From a virus (Duplodnaviria > Heunggongvirae > Uroviricota > Caudoviricetes), in IMG/VR virus record IMGVR_UViG_2695420763_000003: a stretch of 19,770 bases of DNA; one strand, written 5' to 3'. The notes beneath the pieces were generated by a model that was not told the origin of the DNA, searched no databases, and worked only from the letters and a program-made list of their open reading frames with translations. The position numbers and the translations under genes were made by a program. Of this stretch, positions 10,320 through 19,112 are shown piece by piece. The first letter of the stretch is position 1, and every line of letters starts with the position of its first letter.

Positions 10320-10598
10320 TTACCTCCAGATGCGTTGCTGGAATGTGCGGGACGGACGCGGTGGGCGTTCGGAGTAAGGAAGCCTGACGGAGATTATCCA
10401 GTGACGATAATCGAGGCTGAGGGCTTTCTTAATCTCGTATCCGTGTCTGCGGTAGCACTGAATTAGCCACTCGGCCTGTTCTTCAGTGCATGGGGGATGC
10501 TGGAACCAGTCAGATTTGAAAGTGCGGGAACGCCGCCCGTGCCTGCTGGCAAAGACGGCAGAATCATCAGAATTGTATAATTTGGTATCGTGCGCCAT
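10320..10598 (-). CDS. rem: Small hypothetical protein in the position of Qin rem
   Basis: Track ORF 10320..10679 starts at a TTG that overlaps the hok terminator. I prefer the internal ATG at 10598 (MAHDTKLYNSDDSAVF..., 92 aa). Assignment to rem is by synteny (ydfU-rem-hokD) only. Confidence 0.35.
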   Translation of the reverse strand: MAHDTKLYNSDDSAVFASRHGRRSRTFKSDWFQHPPCTEEQAEWLIQCYRRHGYEIKKALSLDYRHWIISVRLPYSERPPRPSRTFQQRIWR

Positions 10599-10667
10599 CG
10601 GTTGTCTCTGCTGGCGCAGCAGGTGCCAGTTGTTCAGGCTGGCGTGCGAATTGTAAACCAGAATGCC

Positions 10668-10698
10668 AGGAAAAAACAAAACCCGCCGAAGCGGGTTA
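10668..10698 (-). terminator. Intrinsic terminator of the hok mRNA
   Basis: Minus-strand RNA AACCCGC-UUCG-GCGGGUU followed by UUGUUUUUUCC. Preceded by a 9-bp hairpin GGCGAGGGA-GAAA-UCCCUCGCC in the 3' UTR (about 10734-10755). Confidence 0.5.
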
Positions 10699-14420: not shown

Positions 14421-15167
14421 TTACTTCACAACCCTCATATTGCTGACATTTGGACGCCAGCTATCCCAGTTAAACGTCACCCATCGACCACCGTTCATGG
14501 TCATGCGGTCCATAATCCTCTCACCAAGAAGCGTACTCATTGCGGCATGATTCAGGTTTGTTAACATCCCGACACTGCACAGTGATGCTGTCCGGCGATC
14601 AATTATCTGGTGCAATACCACCTGCTCGTTTTTCGTCTCACGCTGAACGCCTATTTCATCCAGGACCAGCAAATCAACCCCGCAAAGCTCCTGTAAAAAT
14701 TTTTCCCCGGATTTGCCGTTGTCGTAGCTGTCATGCAACACGCTCATGACGTCAGACACGGTGACGATAATCACGCTGCGCCCCTTCACCATCAGCCGGT
14801 TGCCCATCGCCGCTGCAAGGTGATTTTTCCCGGTGCCGGTTTTACCGCTGAACACAAAATTCGTGCACCCGGTCATCAGTTCGTCAGCTATGGATTTGGC
14901 CTGGCTCAGCGCGTATTTTTGCCCGTCGTTCTGCACCTGATAATTTGCAAACGAGCATTTGCTGTGCAGAGGCTGGATGCCCGAACGATTCAGGATTTTT
15001 TCCACCCGCAACTGGCGATTCTGGCGGTTAATCTCCTCGCTGCGTTTTCGTCCTTCAGCAAGTTGCCATTCCCGCCACTCCTCCACCGTCCGGTACGGTG
15101 GAACCGACCCCTGTGGTGCAAGTCTGCGAATACGTTCAAGAACCCCAACTGCCGCAATGTTTTTCAT
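14421..15167 (-). CDS. DnaC-like replicative helicase loader (IstB-type AAA+ ATPase)
   Basis: 248-aa ORF with Walker A FSGKTGTGKNHLAAAMG and Walker B LLVLDEIG. Confidence 0.9.
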   Translation of the reverse strand: MKNIAAVGVLERIRRLAPQGSVPPYRTVEEWREWQLAEGRKRSEEINRQNRQLRVEKILNRSGIQPLHSKCSFANYQVQNDGQKYALSQAKSIADELMTGCTNFVFSGKTGTGKNHLAAAMGNRLMVKGRSVIIVTVSDVMSVLHDSYDNGKSGEKFLQELCGVDLLVLDEIGVQRETKNEQVVLHQIIDRRTASLCSVGMLTNLNHAAMSTLLGERIMDRMTMNGGRWVTFNWDSWRPNVSNMRVVK

Positions 15168-15173
15168 GACACG

Positions 15174-16151
15174 TCACCCCCTGAATCCCGGCGGTATTTC
15201 AGTGTCCGGTTCAGAAATGTGATTCACGCAACGCTGCGCAGGCGAACGCCCCAGGCGGATAACCAGTTCATCCCATTTTTCCCGGAGTTTTGCCGGACTC
15301 ATGATGTTTTTTACCCAGAACGAATCCCGCTGGAGACGCCCAAACATTTCACAAATTTGTCTGTGAGTTCTGCCATCCAGCATCCGCATTGTGCGAACGT
15401 CATTGGCCCATGCTGTCCAGTTGGGTTCTTTCGGTCTAGTGATCTCGCCATCATAGCTGGCCGCCTGCTCGTAAAGACTCACGATTCGTCCCCAGATCCA
15501 CTGTGCGCACACCAAATCTTCCTGACTTCCCCACTGGCGTTTTTTCGCACTGAACACAACCGCGTCAGGGTGTCGGGTTAAAAAATCCTGTTCAGCCGTC
15601 TGCGGGTCCGGTTGCGAAGCGTCCGGACAAGAAGATCTTTTATCTGACGGATCAGGTTTTAATACTGACGGATCGGGGTCAATCATCGCCCCCCTAATCG
15701 GCAGTTTTTTATCAACAGTTGATCCATCAAAATTTGACGGGTCAACCGTTGAGGGGGCAATATTTGACGGGTCAACTGTTAACGGGTCATTTTTTGCCGG
15801 GCTAATTTTTCTTTTCGGTTTATATGACTCACGCGCCGCCGCCGCAGCTGCTTCGAGTTTTTCCACATTAAGCCGATAGATATTGCTTACATTACGCCCA
15901 CCGACCTTACGCTCTTCCTTCGTCAGCCAGCCCTCTTTCGCCAGTTCTGCAATAGCCGATTTCACTGTGGATTCACTTCTTGCACCGATCTGACGCCGGA
16001 TAGTTTCAATGGCAGGCCATGACACGCCCTCGTCATTGCTGTAGTCTGCAAGACGGGCCATAACCGCCACCCTGGATAAGATCATGCCGGTGAAGGCGCA
16101 CCCTTCCCAGACAAGACCATGAAGCTTGCTGCTCATAAAACCCCCGAACAC
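15174..16151 (-). CDS. Replication initiation / primosome protein: N-terminal HTH domain, repeat-containing linker, C-terminal DnaT-like domain
   Basis: 325-aa ORF. The C-terminus ...NHISEPDTEIPPGFRG matches the conserved C-terminal tail of E. coli DnaT (...VSEPDSQIPPGFRG) as recalled. The linker PLTVDPSNIAPSTVDPSNFDGSTVD is encoded by the iteron array. Confidence 0.8.
   Translation of the reverse strand: MFGGFMSSKLHGLVWEGCAFTGMILSRVAVMARLADYSNDEGVSWPAIETIRRQIGARSESTVKSAIAELAKEGWLTKEERKVGGRNVSNIYRLNVEKLEAAAAAARESYKPKRKISPAKNDPLTVDPSNIAPSTVDPSNFDGSTVDKKLPIRGAMIDPDPSVLKPDPSDKRSSCPDASQPDPQTAEQDFLTRHPDAVVFSAKKRQWGSQEDLVCAQWIWGRIVSLYEQAASYDGEITRPKEPNWTAWANDVRTMRMLDGRTHRQICEMFGRLQRDSFWVKNIMSPAKLREKWDELVIRLGRSPAQRCVNHISEPDTEIPPGFRG
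15644..15790. repeat. Iteron array (candidate origin of replication) inside the initiator gene
   Basis: CTGACGGATC at 15644-15653 and 15665-15674. Near-palindromic TTTGACGGGTCAAC at 15733-15746 and 15763-15776. Related TCAACAGTTGA / GTCAACTGTTAACGGGTCA elements. A T-rich stretch follows at 15790-15812. Confidence 0.55.
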
Positions 16152-16158
16152 CGTGCTT

Positions 16159-16584
16159 TTAGTGCATCACCACAGCATTCCCTGCCGGGCCGCCGCGATT
16201 CATCTGGTCATACAAAACAACCGCTGACGCAACAAAATCATCGACATCCTTCACCAGCCGATCCCTCCGTTCGACGATCTCACGGTAATATTCAGAACTG
16301 TGGCTGCGCATACGGGCCACCAGCAAAGGCGGCATCGCCTTTTCGATCGCCGGTAACAGAGCCTGCATTTTTTCAACAGCATCAGGGGTGTCTTTATCCA
16401 GCCAACGGAAAATTTTCTGGGTATTACGGGCCAGGGCTTCCGGATGGCTGTCGTCATACAGTTCCGGGAACGTCATTCCCAGCTCGAAATACGCTTTGGT
16501 AATTTTCGCAGCCGGCACTTTTTCGCCGTCCGGATGCGCCCAGACATTCATCGCCATGCGGATGTGTTCATGCTTGATTTTCAT
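16159..16584 (-). CDS. YdaT-like protein (Rac prophage family)
   Basis: 141-aa MKIKHEHIRMAMNVWAHPDGEKVP... Sits immediately downstream of the Cro-like gene, with an AGGAG RBS. Family assignment is from memory of Rac ydaS-ydaT synteny. Confidence 0.55.
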   Translation of the reverse strand: MKIKHEHIRMAMNVWAHPDGEKVPAAKITKAYFELGMTFPELYDDSHPEALARNTQKIFRWLDKDTPDAVEKMQALLPAIEKAMPPLLVARMRSHSSEYYREIVERRDRLVKDVDDFVASAVVLYDQMNRGGPAGNAVVMH

Positions 16585-16849
16585 GAATCAAGCTCCTAGA
16601 AAGTGGTTGTGTTAACGTTTTGGTATCTTCCAGCTCGGGCCAAATATTCATCCAATCAAAAGGCCTTAGTTGCTGACGTGTAACTTCACCATTACTGGCT
16701 CGCTCAATAAGGACACATAACGATGCCCCTAACACTTGACCTTTACTCAATGCCTTTCTTAGATAACCGATGCTGGTACCACACTCGCATGCAAACATAC
16801 GCTGTTCATCTGACGAAAGAGAATTGAGAAATATTCTTAATTCTTCCAT
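16568..16849 (-). CDS. Cro-like HTH regulator (YdaS-like)
   Basis: 93-aa ORF with AAGGAG RBS, divergent from the repressor gene. The pattern FACECGTSIGYLRKALSKGQVL...IERASNGEVTRQQLRPFDW resembles YdaS/Cro-type HTH proteins. Confidence 0.6.
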   Translation of the reverse strand: MEELRIFLNSLSSDEQRMFACECGTSIGYLRKALSKGQVLGASLCVLIERASNGEVTRQQLRPFDWMNIWPELEDTKTLTQPLSRSLIHENQA

Positions 16850-16874
16850 AGCTACTCCTTAGTAAACACAGCAA

Positions 16875-16943
16875 AGAATACCCACAGGTAAACAAAAGTC
16901 AATACCCACAGGTTGTTTACCTTGCGGTAATCGCATCTATTAT
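16875..16943. promoter_or_regulatory. Divergent promoter/operator region of the immunity switch
   Basis: Direct repeats ATACCCACAGGT at 16878-16889 and 16902-16913. Inverted repeat GGTAAACAA (16887-16895) / TTGTTTACC (16913-16921). Minus-strand promoter TTGACT-16-TATTCT overlaps the repeats. Plus-strand -10 TATTAT (16938-16943) lies about 6 nt before the repressor ATG, implying a leaderless mRNA. Confidence 0.55.
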
Positions 16944-16949
16944 TTACCT

Positions 16950-17369
16950 ATGGACAAATATGAATTTAGACGACAGCAACTCATCAAAATTCGTGATGAG
17001 AAATGCGATGGTAAAGCGGTTAACGTGGCCAGAAAGATCGGGCGCGAGCCTTCTTATGTATCAAGAATGTTGTACCCAGAGGGGAAAAAGGGAAAAAAAC
17101 GGATCGCTGATGATATGGTGGAGATTATCGAAGAGTCCTTTGGGTTACCCCGGGGATGGATGGATGGTATCGTTTCATCATCAACGAACACAGCCTCCAG
17201 TTATGAAACAAGGGTTCTAACGCCACGACAACGTATTTTTTTAGATCTCTTAGACGAACTGCCAGAAAGTGAAGCGGATAAATTATTAAAAACTCTTGAA
17301 GAGAAAAAACAGTATTACAATATGATCTACGAAGAAATCCGTAAAAAGAAAGCACAAAACGCATCATAG
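16950..17369 (+). CDS. dicA: Prophage repressor (DicA-like HTH protein)
   Basis: 139-aa ORF divergent from the Cro-like gene, with HTH segment AVNVARKIGREPSYVSRML. The C-terminal ...LLDELPESEADKLLKTLEEK resembles the DicA C-terminus as recalled. No SD sequence upstream. Confidence 0.7.
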   Translation: MDKYEFRRQQLIKIRDEKCDGKAVNVARKIGREPSYVSRMLYPEGKKGKKRIADDMVEIIEESFGLPRGWMDGIVSSSTNTASSYETRVLTPRQRIFLDLLDELPESEADKLLKTLEEKKQYYNMIYEEIRKKKAQNAS

Positions 17370-17403
17370 CTCACCAAACAACTAGTCACCAGTTAAGACA
17401 CCG

Positions 17404-17450
17404 CAAAAATTTACCCATAGGTATTTACTTTTTAAATACCTATGGGTATC
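17404..17450 (+). promoter_or_regulatory. 15-bp perfect palindrome (operator-like) doubling as a terminator-like hairpin downstream of the repressor gene
   Basis: ACCCATAGGTATTTA (17404-17418) and TAAATACCTATGGGT (17424-17438), followed by ATCCTTCTTTTC. The half-site ACCCATAGGT is related to the ACCCACAGGT repeats at 16881-16913. Confidence 0.5.
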
Positions 17451-17634
17451 CTTCTTTTCATACCAACCCACCCCGCCCCACAGAATGCAGGGCAATACTT
17501 CGAGTTACCAGGCAGTGGTCAGGGGTTAAGTAGCCAGCCCGAGGCGTAAGAACATGACGGCAGGGTTCAACTTTAATAACTATGCAGCAGGTTTTTGTTC
17601 CGCTACCCCGGCGTTAAGGGGAAATGAGGTCAGC

Positions 17635-17790
17635 ATGGATACTATCGATCTTGGCAACAACGAATCTCTGGTGTACGGCGTGTTTCCCAACCAGGACGGC
17701 ACGTTCACCGCGATGACGTATACCAAAAGCAAAACGTTTAAAACCGAAAATGGTGCCCGTCGCTGGCTGGAAAGAAACTCAGGTGAGTGA
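17635..17790 (+). CDS. ydfA: YdfA-like small protein (DUF1391-like, 51 aa)
   Basis: MDTIDLGNNESLVYGVFPNQDGTFTAMTYTKSKTFKTENGARRWLERNSGE with GAGG RBS. The track ORF starts further upstream at 17554. First gene of a dicB-type operon by synteny. Confidence 0.7.
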   Translation: MDTIDLGNNESLVYGVFPNQDGTFTAMTYTKSKTFKTENGARRWLERNSGE

Positions 17791-17791
17791 T

Positions 17792-17920
17792 ATGGATTTC
17801 GACACAATCATGGAAAAGGCTTACGAAGAATACTTCGAAGACCTTGCCGAAGGCGAAGAAGCTCTCAGCTTCAGTGAGTTTAAACAGGCGCTTTCCAGCT
17901 CGGCAAAATCTAACGGCTGA
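17792..17920 (+). CDS. ydfB: YdfB-like small acidic protein (42 aa)
   Basis: MDFDTIMEKAYEEYFEDLAEGEEALSFSEFKQALSSSAKSNG. The ATG lies 1 nt after the ydfA stop. Too short for the ORF track. Confidence 0.6.
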   Translation: MDFDTIMEKAYEEYFEDLAEGEEALSFSEFKQALSSSAKSNG

Positions 17921-17949
17921 TAAGCGAAGTAGCACCGCGAGGAATCAGT

Positions 17950-18168
17950 ATGCAGAAACGAGAACCCGTCATAATCGCGCCAGACTATACCGATGATGAA
18001 CTTTATGAGTGGATGCGCCAGAAAATTAATGCAGCGCAGGATCTGAAATGGGCTAATGAAGCCAGGGCTAAGCAGGCTGAAAATCTGTCCGCTCTGGAGC
18101 AGGATATCACCAATCTGGAAAAAGCAGCGGCATTAAGCATTGCCAGAATGATTACATACCCGCGTTAA
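17950..18168 (+). CDS. ydfC: YdfC-like protein (72 aa)
   Basis: Track ORF MQKREPVIIAPDYTDDELYEWMRQKINAAQDLKWANEARAK... with GAGGAA RBS. Length and position match ydfC of the Qin dicB operon. Confidence 0.65.
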   Translation: MQKREPVIIAPDYTDDELYEWMRQKINAAQDLKWANEARAKQAENLSALEQDITNLEKAAALSIARMITYPR

Positions 18169-18507
18169 TAGCTAACCAACGAAGCTAAGGTTGGTAATTA
18201 AGGAGTTCTCCACGGGTGAGGTGGGGTGCGTGCGCCGGACACGGGTGAGCATCCGGCACTGACAGTTTACTGAAAGGATATTTCCCTGAAAAGTCAGACC
18301 ATAACGCGAAAGCGCACGGCGAGGTAGCTGGTTCATAGATAGCCTGTCGTTAAATTTTCGTCGACCGTGCGCTTCCGGTTGTGGCAATCCGCGAAATGGC
18401 GCGGCGGTAAGTATGGAGGGGTTATTCCTTCCCCGTTGAGGACACCGGGTTGTCAGGTTGACCATACGCTTAAGTGACAACCCCGCTGCAACGCCCTCTG
18501 TTATCAA

Positions 18508-18561
18508 TTTTCTGGTGACTTTTGGCGGTATCAGTTCTACTCCGTGACTGCTCTGCCGCCC
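18508..18561 (+). ncRNA. dicF: DicF small RNA (ftsZ-targeting sRNA processed from the dicB operon transcript)
   Basis: TTTCTGGTGACTTTTGGCGGTATCAGTTCTACTCCGTGACTGCTCTGCCGCCC followed by TTTTT matches the 53-nt K-12 DicF sequence as I recall it, with about 3 substitutions. It ends in a GGCGG...GCCGCC terminator hairpin. Coordinates are from my own line indexing and were not re-verified to the base. Confidence 0.75.
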
Positions 18562-18735
18562 TTTTTAAAGTGAATTTTGTGATGCGGTGAATGCGGCTAA
18601 GCGCACGCGGAACAGTTAAAACCAAAAACAGTGTTATGGGTGGATTCTCTGTATCCGGCGTTAATTGTTAACTGGTTAACGTCACCTGGAGGCACCAGGC
18701 ACTGCATCACAAAATTCATTGTTGAGGACGCGATA

Positions 18736-18924
18736 ATGGAAACGTTATTACCAAACGTTAATACGTCTGAAGGTTGTTTTGAAATTGGTGTCACTATCAG
18801 TAACCCTGTATTTACTGAAGATGCCATTAACAAGAGAAAACACGAACGGGAGTTATTAAATAAAATATGCATTCTTTCAATGCTGGCCCGTTTACGTCCG
18901 ATACAAAAAGGATGCTGGCAATGA
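18736..18924 (+). CDS. dicB: Cell-division inhibitor DicB (62 aa)
   Basis: METLLPNVNTSEGCFEIGVTISNPVFTEDAINKRKHERELLNKICILSMLARLRPIQKGCWQ with GAGGA RBS. Matches my recollection of DicB. The track lists it with a longer upstream extension (18631). Confidence 0.8.
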   Translation: METLLPNVNTSEGCFEIGVTISNPVFTEDAINKRKHERELLNKICILSMLARLRPIQKGCWQ

Positions 18925-19112
18925 ATACAGCATTTGCACTTGTTCTGACATTTTTTCTTGTTTCCGGAGAGCCAGTTGATATTGCAGTCAGTGTTCACAG
19001 GACAATGCAGGAGTGTGTGACTGCAGCAACCGAACAGAAAATTCCCAGTAACTGTTACCCGGTCGATAAAGTTATTCACCAGGATAATAACGAAATCCCG
19101 GCAGGTCTTTAA
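18921..19112 (+). CDS. ydfD: YdfD-like small protein (63 aa) with hydrophobic N-terminus
   Basis: MNTAFALVLTFFLVSGEPVDIAVSVHRTMQECVTAATEQKIPSNCYPVDKVIHQDNNEIPAGL. The ATG overlaps the dicB stop (ATGA). Confidence 0.75.
   Translation: MNTAFALVLTFFLVSGEPVDIAVSVHRTMQECVTAATEQKIPSNCYPVDKVIHQDNNEIPAGL

Follow-up and report, generated by a model that had tools for sequence, protein, structure and literature searches.

Genes and promoters of the region

The stretch of DNA analysed here (19,770 nt, hereafter the window) carries a short repressor gene, with a Cro-like gene and a ydaT-type gene on the opposite strand to its left and an operon of the ydfABC-dicF-dicB type to its right. The genes, the parts of the repressor and three predicted promoters are arranged as follows.

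16159-16584 (-): ydaT-type gene downstream of cro, CII-like, 141 aa (Pfam YdaT_toxin, 2.8e-10; PHROG 163 "CII-like transcriptional activator", 3e-47)
16568-16849 (-): Cro-like gene, 93 aa (ORF; PHROG 35 "transcriptional repressor", 4.8e-23)
16574-16591: TTGATT-N6-AATCAA dyad at the cro stop and ydaT start, its sole exact match in the window
16855-16859 (-): Shine-Dalgarno (SD) sequence AGGAG of the Cro-like gene
16875-16902 (-): PR-like promoter of the Cro-like operon, -35 TTGACT (16902-16897), 16-nt spacer, -10 TATTCT (16880-16875); promoter scan
16916-16943 (+): PRM-like promoter of the repressor gene, -35 TTTACC (16916-16921), 16-nt spacer, -10 TATTAT (16938-16943); promoter scan
16950-17369 (+): repressor gene, 139 aa (ORF; PHROG 5736, 6e-70)
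16950-17171: N-terminal DNA-binding domain of the repressor, residues 1-74 (domain homology), followed by a disordered linker
17205-17369: C-terminal two-helix tail of the repressor, residues ~86-139, DicA/Tritos-CI type
17424-17452 (+): PL-like promoter of the ydfABC-dicF-dicB operon, -35 TTTACT (17424-17429), 17-nt spacer, -10 TATCCT (17447-17452); read by eye
17635-19112 (+): operon past PL
17635-17790 (+): ydfA
17793-17920 (+): ydfB
17950-18168 (+): ydfC
18510-18561 (+): dicF sRNA
18736-18924 (+): dicB
18921-19112 (+): ydfD

Gene names within the operon are those given by RefSeq to the EC958 locus, which is 99.8% identical, and they are supported by a Pfam DUF1391 match and by an Rfam DicF match of 71.5 bits. 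The repressor gene lies directly upstream of ydfABC-dicF-dicB, which is the position of DicA. The Cro-like protein has a weak Pfam YdaS match (9e-6, under the gathering score), and homologues with 40-73% identity occupy the same divergent position in related loci.

Transcription from the PR-like promoter is predicted to start near 16868 (promoter scan), that from the PRM-like promoter at the A of the repressor ATG at 16950, and that from the PL-like promoter at 17459/17460. The PL hexamers, with 8 of 12 matches, fall under the promoter-scan threshold and are weaker than the family consensus described below. The TTGATT-N6-AATCAA dyad is known as OM, the high-affinity operator of YdaT in CP-933P, where it lies at the end of ydaS (PMC9986795); by analogy with that prophage, the copy in the window may be a PRE-type establishment element.

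Putative operator sites on both sides of the repressor gene

An earlier note on this DNA had drawn attention to a 10-bp motif, ACCCAYAGGT, on both sides of the repressor gene. Exact matches number four in the window (16880-16889, 16904-16913 and 17413-17422 on the plus strand; 17438-17447 on the minus strand) against 0.03 expected, a count reached in none of 200 shuffles, and the observation is borne out for the whole window, all four copies lying around the repressor gene and nowhere else. With two mismatches allowed, the whole window holds 21 matches where 23 are expected by chance, so that only the exact cluster is meaningful.

The two copies in the divergent region, which the note had read as direct repeats of 10 bp, do belong to a perfect direct repeat, of 13 nt (AATACCCACAGGT) and 24 nt apart, but the true unit is a 12-bp dyad, TACC-N4-GGTA. 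Four exact dyads and a fifth with one mismatch (OR2) occur in the window, all within two intergenic regions. Three of them lie in the 100 bp between the Cro-like and repressor genes and overlap the hexamers of PR and PRM; one of these three, at 16918-16929, had been overlooked when two sites were counted. What had been described as a 15-bp palindrome after the repressor gene is, in fact, a longer inverted repeat composed of the remaining two dyads and their flanks, beginning 43 nt past the repressor stop codon.

16879-16890: OR1, TACCCACAGGTA, between the PR -35 and -10; centre at -65.5 from the repressor ATG
16903-16914: OR2, TACCCACAGGTT, right arm degenerate, adjoining the PR -35; centre at -41.5
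16918-16929: OR3, TACCTTGCGGTA, overlapping the PRM -35; centre at -26.5
17412-17448 (+): perfect inverted repeat of OL1, OL2 and flanks, 16-nt arms, 100% complementary, 5-nt loop
17412-17423: OL1, TACCCATAGGTA, adjoining the PL -35
17437-17448: OL2, TACCTATGGGTA, within the PL spacer and overlapping the PL -10

A candidate fourth OR site over the ATG (TACCTATGGACA, 16945-16956, two mismatches) was dropped because it is conserved neither in the family nor in the Salmonella relative and in part simply spells conserved Met-Asp codons.

To judge by their sequence and placement, the TACC-N4-GGTA dyads are predicted sites for the repressor, the Cro-like protein, or both. A literature search with six common operator variants brought up only unrelated primer sequences; the repressor DNA-binding domain and its operator form a widespread family of which we found no description.

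Conservation among related loci

The plan was compared across 56 loci that encode relatives of the DNA-binding domain, drawn from gamma- and beta-proteobacteria (Edwardsiella, Klebsiella, Pantoea, Yersinia, Aeromonas, Vibrio, Neisseria, Burkholderia, Xanthomonas, Stenotrophomonas and others). At least two OR sites are present in 49 of the 56 and three in 35, mostly near -72, -47 and -32 from the ATG. The OR1 equivalent falls at -71 to -75 in most loci, and farther upstream in a few with an N-terminal extension; the OR2 equivalent sits at -47/-48, its right arm degenerate in every locus listed; and the OR3 equivalent is at -32/-33. A Klebsiella subgroup lacks the -47 site, and the three-site plan is therefore not universal. 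Downstream of the repressor gene, an OL pair with 24-26 bp spacing is found in 43 of the 56 loci. Operator density is 36.4 per kb in these regions as against 0.18 per kb elsewhere.

The promoters are conserved along with the sites. A PR cassette of the form [OR2]-TTGACn-N6/7-[OR1], its -10 overlapping GGTA, was found in 39 related loci, and in 46 of 46 listed cassettes (43 of the 56 genome loci) the PL consensus [OL1]-TTGACA-N7-[OL2]-TAnnnT has the same strand as the repressor gene, always oriented away from that gene. Both cassettes follow one plan, in which a conserved -35 TTGAC adjoins one operator and the -10 overlaps the other. The DNA-binding domain relatives, the Cro-like protein and the operator sites are co-inherited. 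The proposal of the earlier note that a single repressor could govern the Cro-side promoter and the dicB operon through operators flanking its gene is well supported by the comparison of the 56 loci.

The repressor protein

No Pfam match to the repressor is seen even at E = 10, and the S24 peptidase domain (PF00717) is absent. Searches of the DNA-binding domain against Pfam, NCBIfam and PDB sequences returned nothing meaningful; the best PDB match, a Z-alpha domain at E 0.37, is regarded as noise. With the N-terminal domains of CI repressors of the S24/LexA type the same domain shares 70-82% identity, and PF00717 is present in 17 of 34 aligned relatives.

The earlier description of the repressor as DicA-like holds for its last ~50 residues, which share 33% identity with DicA over 46 aa (BLASTP), and fails for its DNA-binding domain, which is unrelated to the HTH_3 domain of DicA: DicA matches HTH_3 at 1.3e-16, the window repressor not at all. 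Against the DicA model NF007257 the repressor scores 24.5 bits, where the cut-off is 101, and the match is limited to residues 86-136.

An AlphaFold model of the repressor (pLDDT 85) places four helices in residues 3-63, a stretch modelled for the most part at pLDDT >90. Foldseek relates it to helix-turn-helix proteins of the XRE type, C.Esp1396I, C.BclI, HigA and TP901-1 CI (TM 0.63-0.70 on the target, rmsd ~2.9 A, with weak E-values of 0.2-0.4), the best structural match being SPC32H Rep (PDB 5D50/5D4Z, E = 2e-3). By homology, the repressor is a composite of a DNA-binding domain usually carried by SOS-cleavable S24 repressors and a short helical tail of the DicA/Tritos type. The S24 autocleavage domain marks the lambda cI subtype rather than the lambdoid switch itself. 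PHROG annotation of the neighbouring ORFs revealed no antirepressor, and the ORF at the rem position (10320-10679), considered as a Rem-type antirepressor, bears no similarity to K-12 Rem.

Alternative readings of the sites and the repressor message

The chance that the operator repeats are accidental, or remnants of duplication devoid of any regulatory role, appears negligible. The count at two mismatches, which equals chance expectation, would agree with such a reading, but the exact copies far exceed it, and both the positions and the arms of the sites are conserved in about 50 loci whose proteins share 40-80% identity, whereas the four nucleotides between the arms are free to vary; even among E. 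coli variants, the operator arms have changed at 2 of 40 positions as against 11 of 20 central ones. We regard the chance reading as refuted by the excess of exact copies, the conserved positions and the site density. A different question is posed by the start of the repressor message. As the earlier note had observed, the ATG (16950) follows TATTAT by the six nucleotides TTACCT, with no SD; a search upstream for the cores AGGA, GGAG and GAGG found none. The same message could instead be leadered, beginning at an upstream promoter (of PRE type within cro, or another) and being translated SD-less by way of an A/U-rich leader, in which case TATTAT would be no working -10. Such a reading draws on the exact YdaT operator at 16574-16591, which implies an establishment promoter directed towards the repressor gene as in CP-933P, and on the PRM -35 TTTACC, weak in the promoter scan. 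It is nonetheless very unlikely: 44 of the 56 related loci, spread over two bacterial classes, place the end of a -10-like hexamer 6-7 nt ahead of the ATG, a regularity difficult to account for in another way, and no more than 7 of the 56 have an SD core. Every start among the repressor relatives is ATG, which fits the leaderless reading because leaderless translation requires it, and protein conservation begins at M1. Gene callers frequently extend genes of this family upstream, which fits the absence of a ribosome-binding site to anchor the start. Lambda shows the same spacing, and a leaderless start has been proven for the analogous PaaR2. A leadered transcript would, moreover, be an addition more than an alternative: in lambda, PRE gives a leadered transcript alongside the leaderless one from PRM. 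A leaderless PRM message is, in sum, a prediction well supported by comparison; the label covers PRM transcripts alone, as an establishment promoter would also yield a leadered repressor message.

The OL inverted repeat invites another reading, in which it serves chiefly or additionally as an intrinsic terminator, stopping PRM transcripts before the toxic dicF/dicB operon, while PL transcripts, starting past the stem, escape. As RNA the repeat folds at -22.5 kcal/mol (z = -8.45) into a 16-bp stem with five G-C pairs, followed by the tail UCCUUCUUUUC; a terminator scan flags it on both strands, no other hairpin exists in the 43 nt between the repressor stop codon and OL1, and in a Serratia relative the corresponding position holds a classical terminator. 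The fold is kept at -18 to -24.5 kcal/mol in the 10 E. coli relatives folded and at -24.4 in a Salmonella relative (L064). Despite their varying operator centres, the E. coli relatives pair in 98.6% of 144 cells, two pairs having changed on both sides, and the resulting covariation score was matched by 2 of 500 shuffles. Against a terminator stand the interrupted U-tract (UCC comes first), the loss of that tract in a 92%-identical lineage (L061-63) and the lack of a strong hairpin in OL pairs across the wider family; concerted changes in an inverted repeat can, besides, come from template switching without selection, and operators plus a promoter account for the conservation without any RNA role. 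As a family-wide device the terminator was rejected: hairpins at loci where OL directly follows the gene are no stronger than in the rest (median -9.2 versus -12.1 kcal/mol), and the reading is accordingly confined to the E. coli/Salmonella lineage. All told, we consider the terminator reading possible but rather improbable. For the short-repressor lineage of E. coli and Salmonella we suggest, tentatively and as an unlikely reading, that the OL pair may have been moulded into a perfect hairpin and put to dual use, as DNA providing the repressor sites that shut the dicBF promoter and as RNA a terminator or insulator that keeps the constitutive, leaderless repressor transcript out of the division-inhibitor operon. 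Were this so, selection and not accident would account for the compensatory changes that link the two operator centres.

A probable lambdoid immunity switch

The positions of OR1 and OR2 relative to the ATG match those in lambda, and on this ground we read the region as a canonical OR/PRM/PR plus OL/PL switch; on the sequences, positions and conservation described above, it very probably serves a lambdoid E. coli prophage as its immunity switch and follows the plan of lambda. Such an arrangement is the standard lambdoid OR/OL design and not an unusual one.

Within such a switch, the 139-aa repressor, and probably the Cro-like protein as well, would bind TACC-N4-GGTA with its A/T flanks, some 16 bp in all. 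Occupancy of OR1, between the PR -35 and -10, would block PR, while OR2, 24 bp from OR1 and with its degenerate arm, would probably be filled cooperatively and activate the weak PRM; at high repressor level, OR3 would shut PRM off through its overlap with the -35. Transcription from PRM would begin at the A of the ATG, 6 nt past the -10, and so give a leaderless message. OL1 and OL2 bracket PL (TTTACT-17-TATCCT), which is predicted to drive ydfABC-dicF-dicB, and the same repressor would thereby keep the division inhibitors silent. A likely establishment promoter would be marked by the site for the CII-like YdaT where cro ends. With a tail of the DicA/Tritos type in place of the S24 domain, induction is probably by antirepressor and not by RecA-mediated cleavage.

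Breakpoints of homology to heteroimmune phages lie at 16596, 17253-17368 and 17466, so that cro-OR-DNA-binding domain and OL/PL are bracketed as the specificity parts; homology to other prophages resumes at 17466, just past PL. Other E. coli strains carry the same switch module ahead of a Rac-type operon. The earlier note had called the switch a chimera, and a chimera it is, with the qualification that one junction lies inside the repressor gene, between DNA-binding domain and tail, and others at the module borders; this is ordinary lambdoid mosaicism.

The switch is carried by 822 of 5426 complete E. coli genomes (about 15%), among them ST131 strains, EPEC E2348/69 and some O157:H7 strains. 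A switch of this prevalence can now be assigned its operator (TACC-N4-GGTA), its promoters and its likely start sites, and in many carriers, the window included, it would be what holds DicB and DicF silent. Together with its Cro partner and its operators, a domain that has no entry in Pfam or the PDB has moved across gamma- and beta-proteobacteria with nearly fixed geometry, and the three offer a natural series for the study of evolving immunity specificity and of switch set-points.

Comparison with known systems

The design itself is nothing new, lambda, Qin and CP-933P being alike in it, and the value of the present case is practical and comparative. In lambda, too, the repressor and cro genes diverge from a region of three operators, and further ones are found at a second same-strand promoter past the repressor gene. 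Its OR1 and OR2 centres lie at -66 and -42 (-65.5 and -41.5 here), its cI start reads TAGATT, 6 nt, ATG without SD (TATTAT, 6 nt, ATG here), and its cro leader is similar (TACTAAGGAG). The differences are that the lambda operator is 17 bp, compared with the 12-bp TACC-N4-GGTA dyad; that OR3 and OR2 are 23 bp apart in lambda and 15 bp here; and that lambda has three OL sites to the two of the window. The window, for its part, lacks rexAB between the repressor gene and OL, its repressor lacks the S24 cleavage domain, and PL leads into ydfABC-dicF-dicB where lambda has N.

For DicA of Qin, operators at dicCp and dicBp have already been described (PMC10448788, PMC3441716). Qin shares the gene order (cro-like gene, repressor, ydfA-ydfB-ydfC-dicF-dicB-ydfD), a short repressor without cleavage site and with a homologous C-terminal tail, and a repressor ATG (dicA) that also lacks an obvious SD. 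Two promoters, the divergent one and that of the dicB operon, are under DicA control, and DicA is also its own activator; the same is predicted of its counterpart in the window. Unlike that counterpart, DicA has a Pfam HTH_3 domain and the operator TTGTTAGTCATAACTAACAA, neither of which is found in the window: the DicA operator (TTAGTCATAACTAA core) has no match within three mismatches near the locus. Nor is DicC of Qin (76 aa) the Cro-like protein of the window.

CP-933P of E. coli O157:H7 combines a short CI-like repressor with a ydaS-ydaT pair read divergently from it; where its cro-like gene ends lies the YdaT operator TTGATT-N6-AATCAA, which recurs exactly in the window. PaaR2 is made from a leaderless message, as established by 5' RACE and protein N-terminal sequencing, and has operators at OR and at a PL-type promoter (PMC8630535). 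Compared by description, PaaR2 differs in that it starts MQKKE and has the repeat consensus GTTTAGTAA; in CP-933P the paaA2-parE2 toxin-antitoxin pair comes next, whereas here OL follows directly.

Salmonella phage SPC32H Rep, the best structural match, is likewise a short, non-cleavable repressor and is controlled by an antirepressor; at 16-23% sequence identity the match is a weak one. The CI of phage Tritos is also of 139 aa and has a homologous tail (75% at the DNA level over window positions 17253-17368), with a ydaT-type gene on one side and a ydfA-dicB operon on the other; its N-terminal domain and the operators around its promoters are different ones. For coliphage mEp043, the literature that mentions it yielded nothing on its operators; the DNA-binding domain of its cI is 76% identical and its Cro 73% identical, and it has the same OR triplet (TACCTGTAGGTA, TACCCATAGGTT and TACCGGCAGGTA at -72, -47 and -32) and the same OL pair, but its cI has 228 aa and includes an S24 peptidase domain, OL is preceded by an additional gene, and PL drives N. 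The window offers a clean case of sensing-domain exchange, from S24 autocleavage to a DicA-type tail, with the DNA-binding half and its sites unchanged.

Setting and predicted operators of the switch

The window belongs to a lambdoid prophage of E. coli. Between 16500 and 17700 it shares 99.8% identity with ST131 strains such as EC958; at least 80% of this stretch is found in 822 of 5426 complete E. coli genomes, and EPEC E2348/69 is 100% identical over 17300-17470. The features of the region are as follows, the minus-strand genes being called from open reading frames and family matches.

14421-15167, minus strand, DnaC-like gene
15174-16151, minus strand, O-like replication gene
16159-16584, minus strand, ydaT/CII-like gene
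16568-16849, minus strand, Cro-like gene
16879-90, divergent-region dyad OR1
16903-14, divergent-region dyad OR2, one arm mismatch
16918-29, divergent-region dyad OR3
16950-17369, plus strand, repressor gene, 139 aa (PHROG 5736)
17412-23 and 17437-48, downstream dyads OL1 and OL2
downstream of the repressor gene, plus strand, ydfA, ydfB, ydfC, the DicF sRNA (18510-18561), dicB and ydfD

The earlier note had read copies of ACCCAYAGGT on both sides of the repressor gene as the operators of one immunity switch, a reading that in outline is real and correct and was upheld when other loci were compared. The motif search that it proposed finds exactly four matches in the window (16880, 16904, 17413 and, on the reverse strand, 17438) against 0.03 expected, all at the flanks of the repressor gene; with two mismatches allowed, extra matches in the window occur at chance level only. 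The upstream copies do form a perfect direct repeat, of 13 nt, but a 12-bp dyad, TACC-N4-GGTA, describes the motif better; of this dyad a third upstream copy, OR3, is also present. What had been taken downstream for a perfect 15-bp palindrome consists of two inverted 16-nt arms around a 5-nt loop. A promoter scan gives the Cro-side promoter PR as TTGACT-16-TATTCT; the putative promoter of ydfABC-dicF-dicB, PL, read by eye as TTTACT-17-TATCCT (17424-17452), has hexamers weaker than the family consensus. We hold this switch architecture to be very probable.

Conservation across relatives

For comparison, 56 genome loci with genes for relatives of the repressor's N-terminal DNA-binding domain (DBD) were taken from Enterobacterales, Aeromonas, Vibrio, Neisseria, Burkholderiales, Xanthomonadales and others. 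Their upstream regions align nearly base for base, in the common order TTTACC-N4-GGTAA, ~12 nt, TCAATACC-N4-GG..ATTTACC-N4-GGTAA, ~10 nt, a TAnAAT-like hexamer, 6-7 nt and ATG. At least two operator sites are found in 49/56 loci and three in 35/56, mostly near -72, -47 and -32 from the ATG, while a pair spaced 24-26 bp lies 3' of the repressor gene, 43 to about 2200 nt past its stop, in 43 of the 56. These regions hold 36.4 sites per kb, as against 0.18 elsewhere. The family promoter cassette consists of a site, TTGACn, N6/7 and a second site, with the -10 starting within the GGTA arm, and downstream it is always oriented away from the repressor gene; PR and PL of the window fit this plan. Because the same loci also encode the Cro-like protein, at 40-73% identity, Cro, operators and DBD make up a single module, old and inherited together.

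Some lineages depart from the common order. Five Klebsiella loci (L004, L007, L008, L010, L011) keep the site near -73, and three of the five that near -33; the -47 site is missing, with a different sequence, TTTGCTATATTTT, in its place. At loci from beta-proteobacteria and Xanthomonas (L020, L030, L033, L034, L036, L037, L039, L045, L048, L053-L054) the Cro-like gene seems to start 6-7 nt past the PR -10, e.g. GGTAAATTGTAGTC-ATGGACAAATTG, so that both divergent genes may be leaderless there; the E. coli Cro-like gene, in contrast, has a leader with a Shine-Dalgarno (SD) sequence.

The operator centres vary in their own right. Among nine E. coli versions (L001, L068-L074; window centres 16883-16886, 16907-16910, 17416-17419, 17441-17444), 11 of the 20 positions in the central N4 of the five operators differ, as against 28/751 other positions (Fisher p = 1.5e-10) and 8/172 third codon positions (p = 3.6e-8). 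The operator arms changed at 2/40 positions, and both proteins, repressor and Cro, are nearly identical. Family-wide, 135 of 223 sites have a pyrimidine-purine-pyrimidine-purine centre. Relaxed constraint, a mutational hotspot, gene conversion and affinity tuning are candidate explanations for the variation.

The repressor protein

PHROG 5736 is annotated as 'transcriptional regulator', and a Pfam search with the repressor gives nothing even at E = 10. The resemblance to DicA proposed in the earlier note holds for its last ~50 residues (33% identity over 46 aa by BLASTP; DicA model 24.5 bits against a cut-off of 101). The first 74 residues, on the other hand, share 70-82% identity with the N-terminal domains of repressors 221-242 aa long that bear an S24/LexA peptidase and come from Salmonella, Edwardsiella, Klebsiella, Pantoea, Yersinia and others. 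The CI of phage Tritos, also 139 aa, has a clearly homologous tail, whereas its N-terminal domain and operators differ. On these grounds the repressor is a domain-level hybrid, in which a DBD usually paired with an SOS-cleavable domain precedes a tail of DicA/Tritos type.

Among 1.84 billion cluster representatives searched, this DBD occurs in 620 clusters (E <= 0.001), or in 223 under the stricter limit of E <= 1e-10; its C-terminal partners vary. Peptidase_S24 is matched by 17 of 34 aligned members, and Pfam DNA-binding models give nothing for the 34 but one weak HTH_38 match; the DBD profile finds no credible match among PDB sequences. In an AlphaFold model (pLDDT 85) four helices make up the N-terminal domain, residues 77-87 a disordered linker and two helices the tail. 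With Foldseek, the nearest structure to the whole model is the antirepressor-controlled Rep of Salmonella phage SPC32H, and the N-terminal domain falls among XRE-type helix-turn-helix proteins, both with weak E-values.

Within the gene, the A-run at 17083-17102 (GGGGAAAAAGGGAAAAAAAC) encodes a conserved GKKGKKR loop. Database proteins of ~135 aa (P0010-P0019) start in another frame, at ATG 16960, and enter the repressor frame at this A-run, which suggests that some E. coli genomes carry a one-base frameshift there that would destroy the DBD.

Start of the repressor message

As the earlier note described, TATTAT (16938-43) is followed by six nt and the repressor ATG, with no SD sequence. In 44/56 loci the ATG is preceded, at a distance of 6 or 7 nt, by a TATAAT-like hexamer (T at position 6 and at least four TATAAT positions matched); other distances are rare, and an SD core occurs in only 7/56. 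Five loci encode a short N-terminal extension, and each time the upstream ATG again lies 6-7 nt past a -10-like hexamer. Conservation of the repressor begins at Met1, and every start is ATG. For PaaR2, the analogous repressor of CP-933P, 5' RACE, N-terminal sequencing and mass spectrometry have shown a leaderless start (PMC8630535). A leaderless start from PRM, the maintenance promoter, is thus predicted here, with somewhat less confidence than the switch architecture itself. In many database relatives the conserved domain begins 30-50 residues inside the annotated protein, an offset that fits gene callers picking an upstream start where the true ATG has no ribosome-binding site.

The YdaT operator sequence, TTGATT-N6-AATCAA, occurs at 16574-16591, at the cro stop and ydaT start, as the sole exact copy in the window. 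A high-affinity operator of YdaT (CII-like) has the same position in CP-933P (PMC9986795). By analogy this would imply a PRE-type establishment promoter; as in lambda, there is probably a leadered establishment transcript too.

The downstream hairpin

The RNA of the OL pair has a predicted fold of -22.5 kcal/mol (z = -8.45), with UCCUUCUUUUC after it. The pair could be both operator and RNA terminator, in this lineage only, a dual role that we regard as rather unlikely. The hairpin is retained in ten E. coli relatives folded (-18 to -24.5 kcal/mol) and in a Salmonella relative (L064, -24.4). In a nine-sequence alignment 98.6% of cells are paired, two pairs have changed on both sides (e.g. CATA/TATG versus CACA/TGTG), and only 2/500 shuffles reach the covariation score. 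Such concerted change can, however, arise in inverted repeats by template switching. The U-run, moreover, is interrupted, and is absent from one lineage, and the wider family has no such hairpin even where OL lies directly 3' of the gene. On the minus strand, too, the hairpin (17412-17448) is scored as terminator-like, with AATTTTTGCG as its tail, and there it could act on antisense transcripts arriving from the direction of the dicB operon.

Module borders

The window resembles the heteroimmune phage Tritos over ydaT (16170-16596), the repressor tail (17253-17368, 75%) and all that lies from 17466 onward (98%), but not over cro-OR-DBD and OL/PL; similarity to K-12 Qin begins only at 17597. 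The switch, which the earlier note called a chimera, is indeed a mosaic with one joint inside the repressor gene, although this is ordinary lambdoid mosaicism. In E. coli HKUOPY1 (L068) and 13C1065T (L069), positions 925-1371, the cro-OR-repressor-OL module precedes a Rac-type operon (ydaF, sieB) and not ydfABC-dicF-dicB, which suggests that one immunity type guards differing PL operons in differing prophages.

Comparison with known switches

In the lambda record, operators are centred at -66, -42 and -19 relative to the first base of the cI ATG, and the PRM -10, TAGATT, is followed by six nt and the ATG. The window has centres at -65.5, -41.5 and -26.5 and the same -10-to-ATG spacing. Given this geometry and established knowledge of lambda, the site at -41.5 would occupy the PRM-activating position, OR1 would block PR, and OR3, over the PRM -35, would mediate negative autoregulation. 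The Cro-like leader (16850-16874, minus strand; GTTTACTAAGGAGTAGCTATGGAA) closely resembles that of lambda cro (ATGTACTAAGGAGGTTGTATGGAA, L067), whereas the proteins and operators differ.

In Qin, operators lie in the dicA-dicC and dicA-dicBp regions, and DicA represses dicBp and dicC and autoactivates dicA, under control of the antirepressor Rem (PMC10448788, PMC3441716). Experiments on CP-933P have demonstrated OR, OL/PL, the leaderless repressor and the YdaT site (PMC8630535, PMC9986795). Our literature search, which included mEp043 and operator variants, found no description of this DBD with a TACC-N4-GGTA operator. The switch layout itself matches those of Qin and CP-933P.
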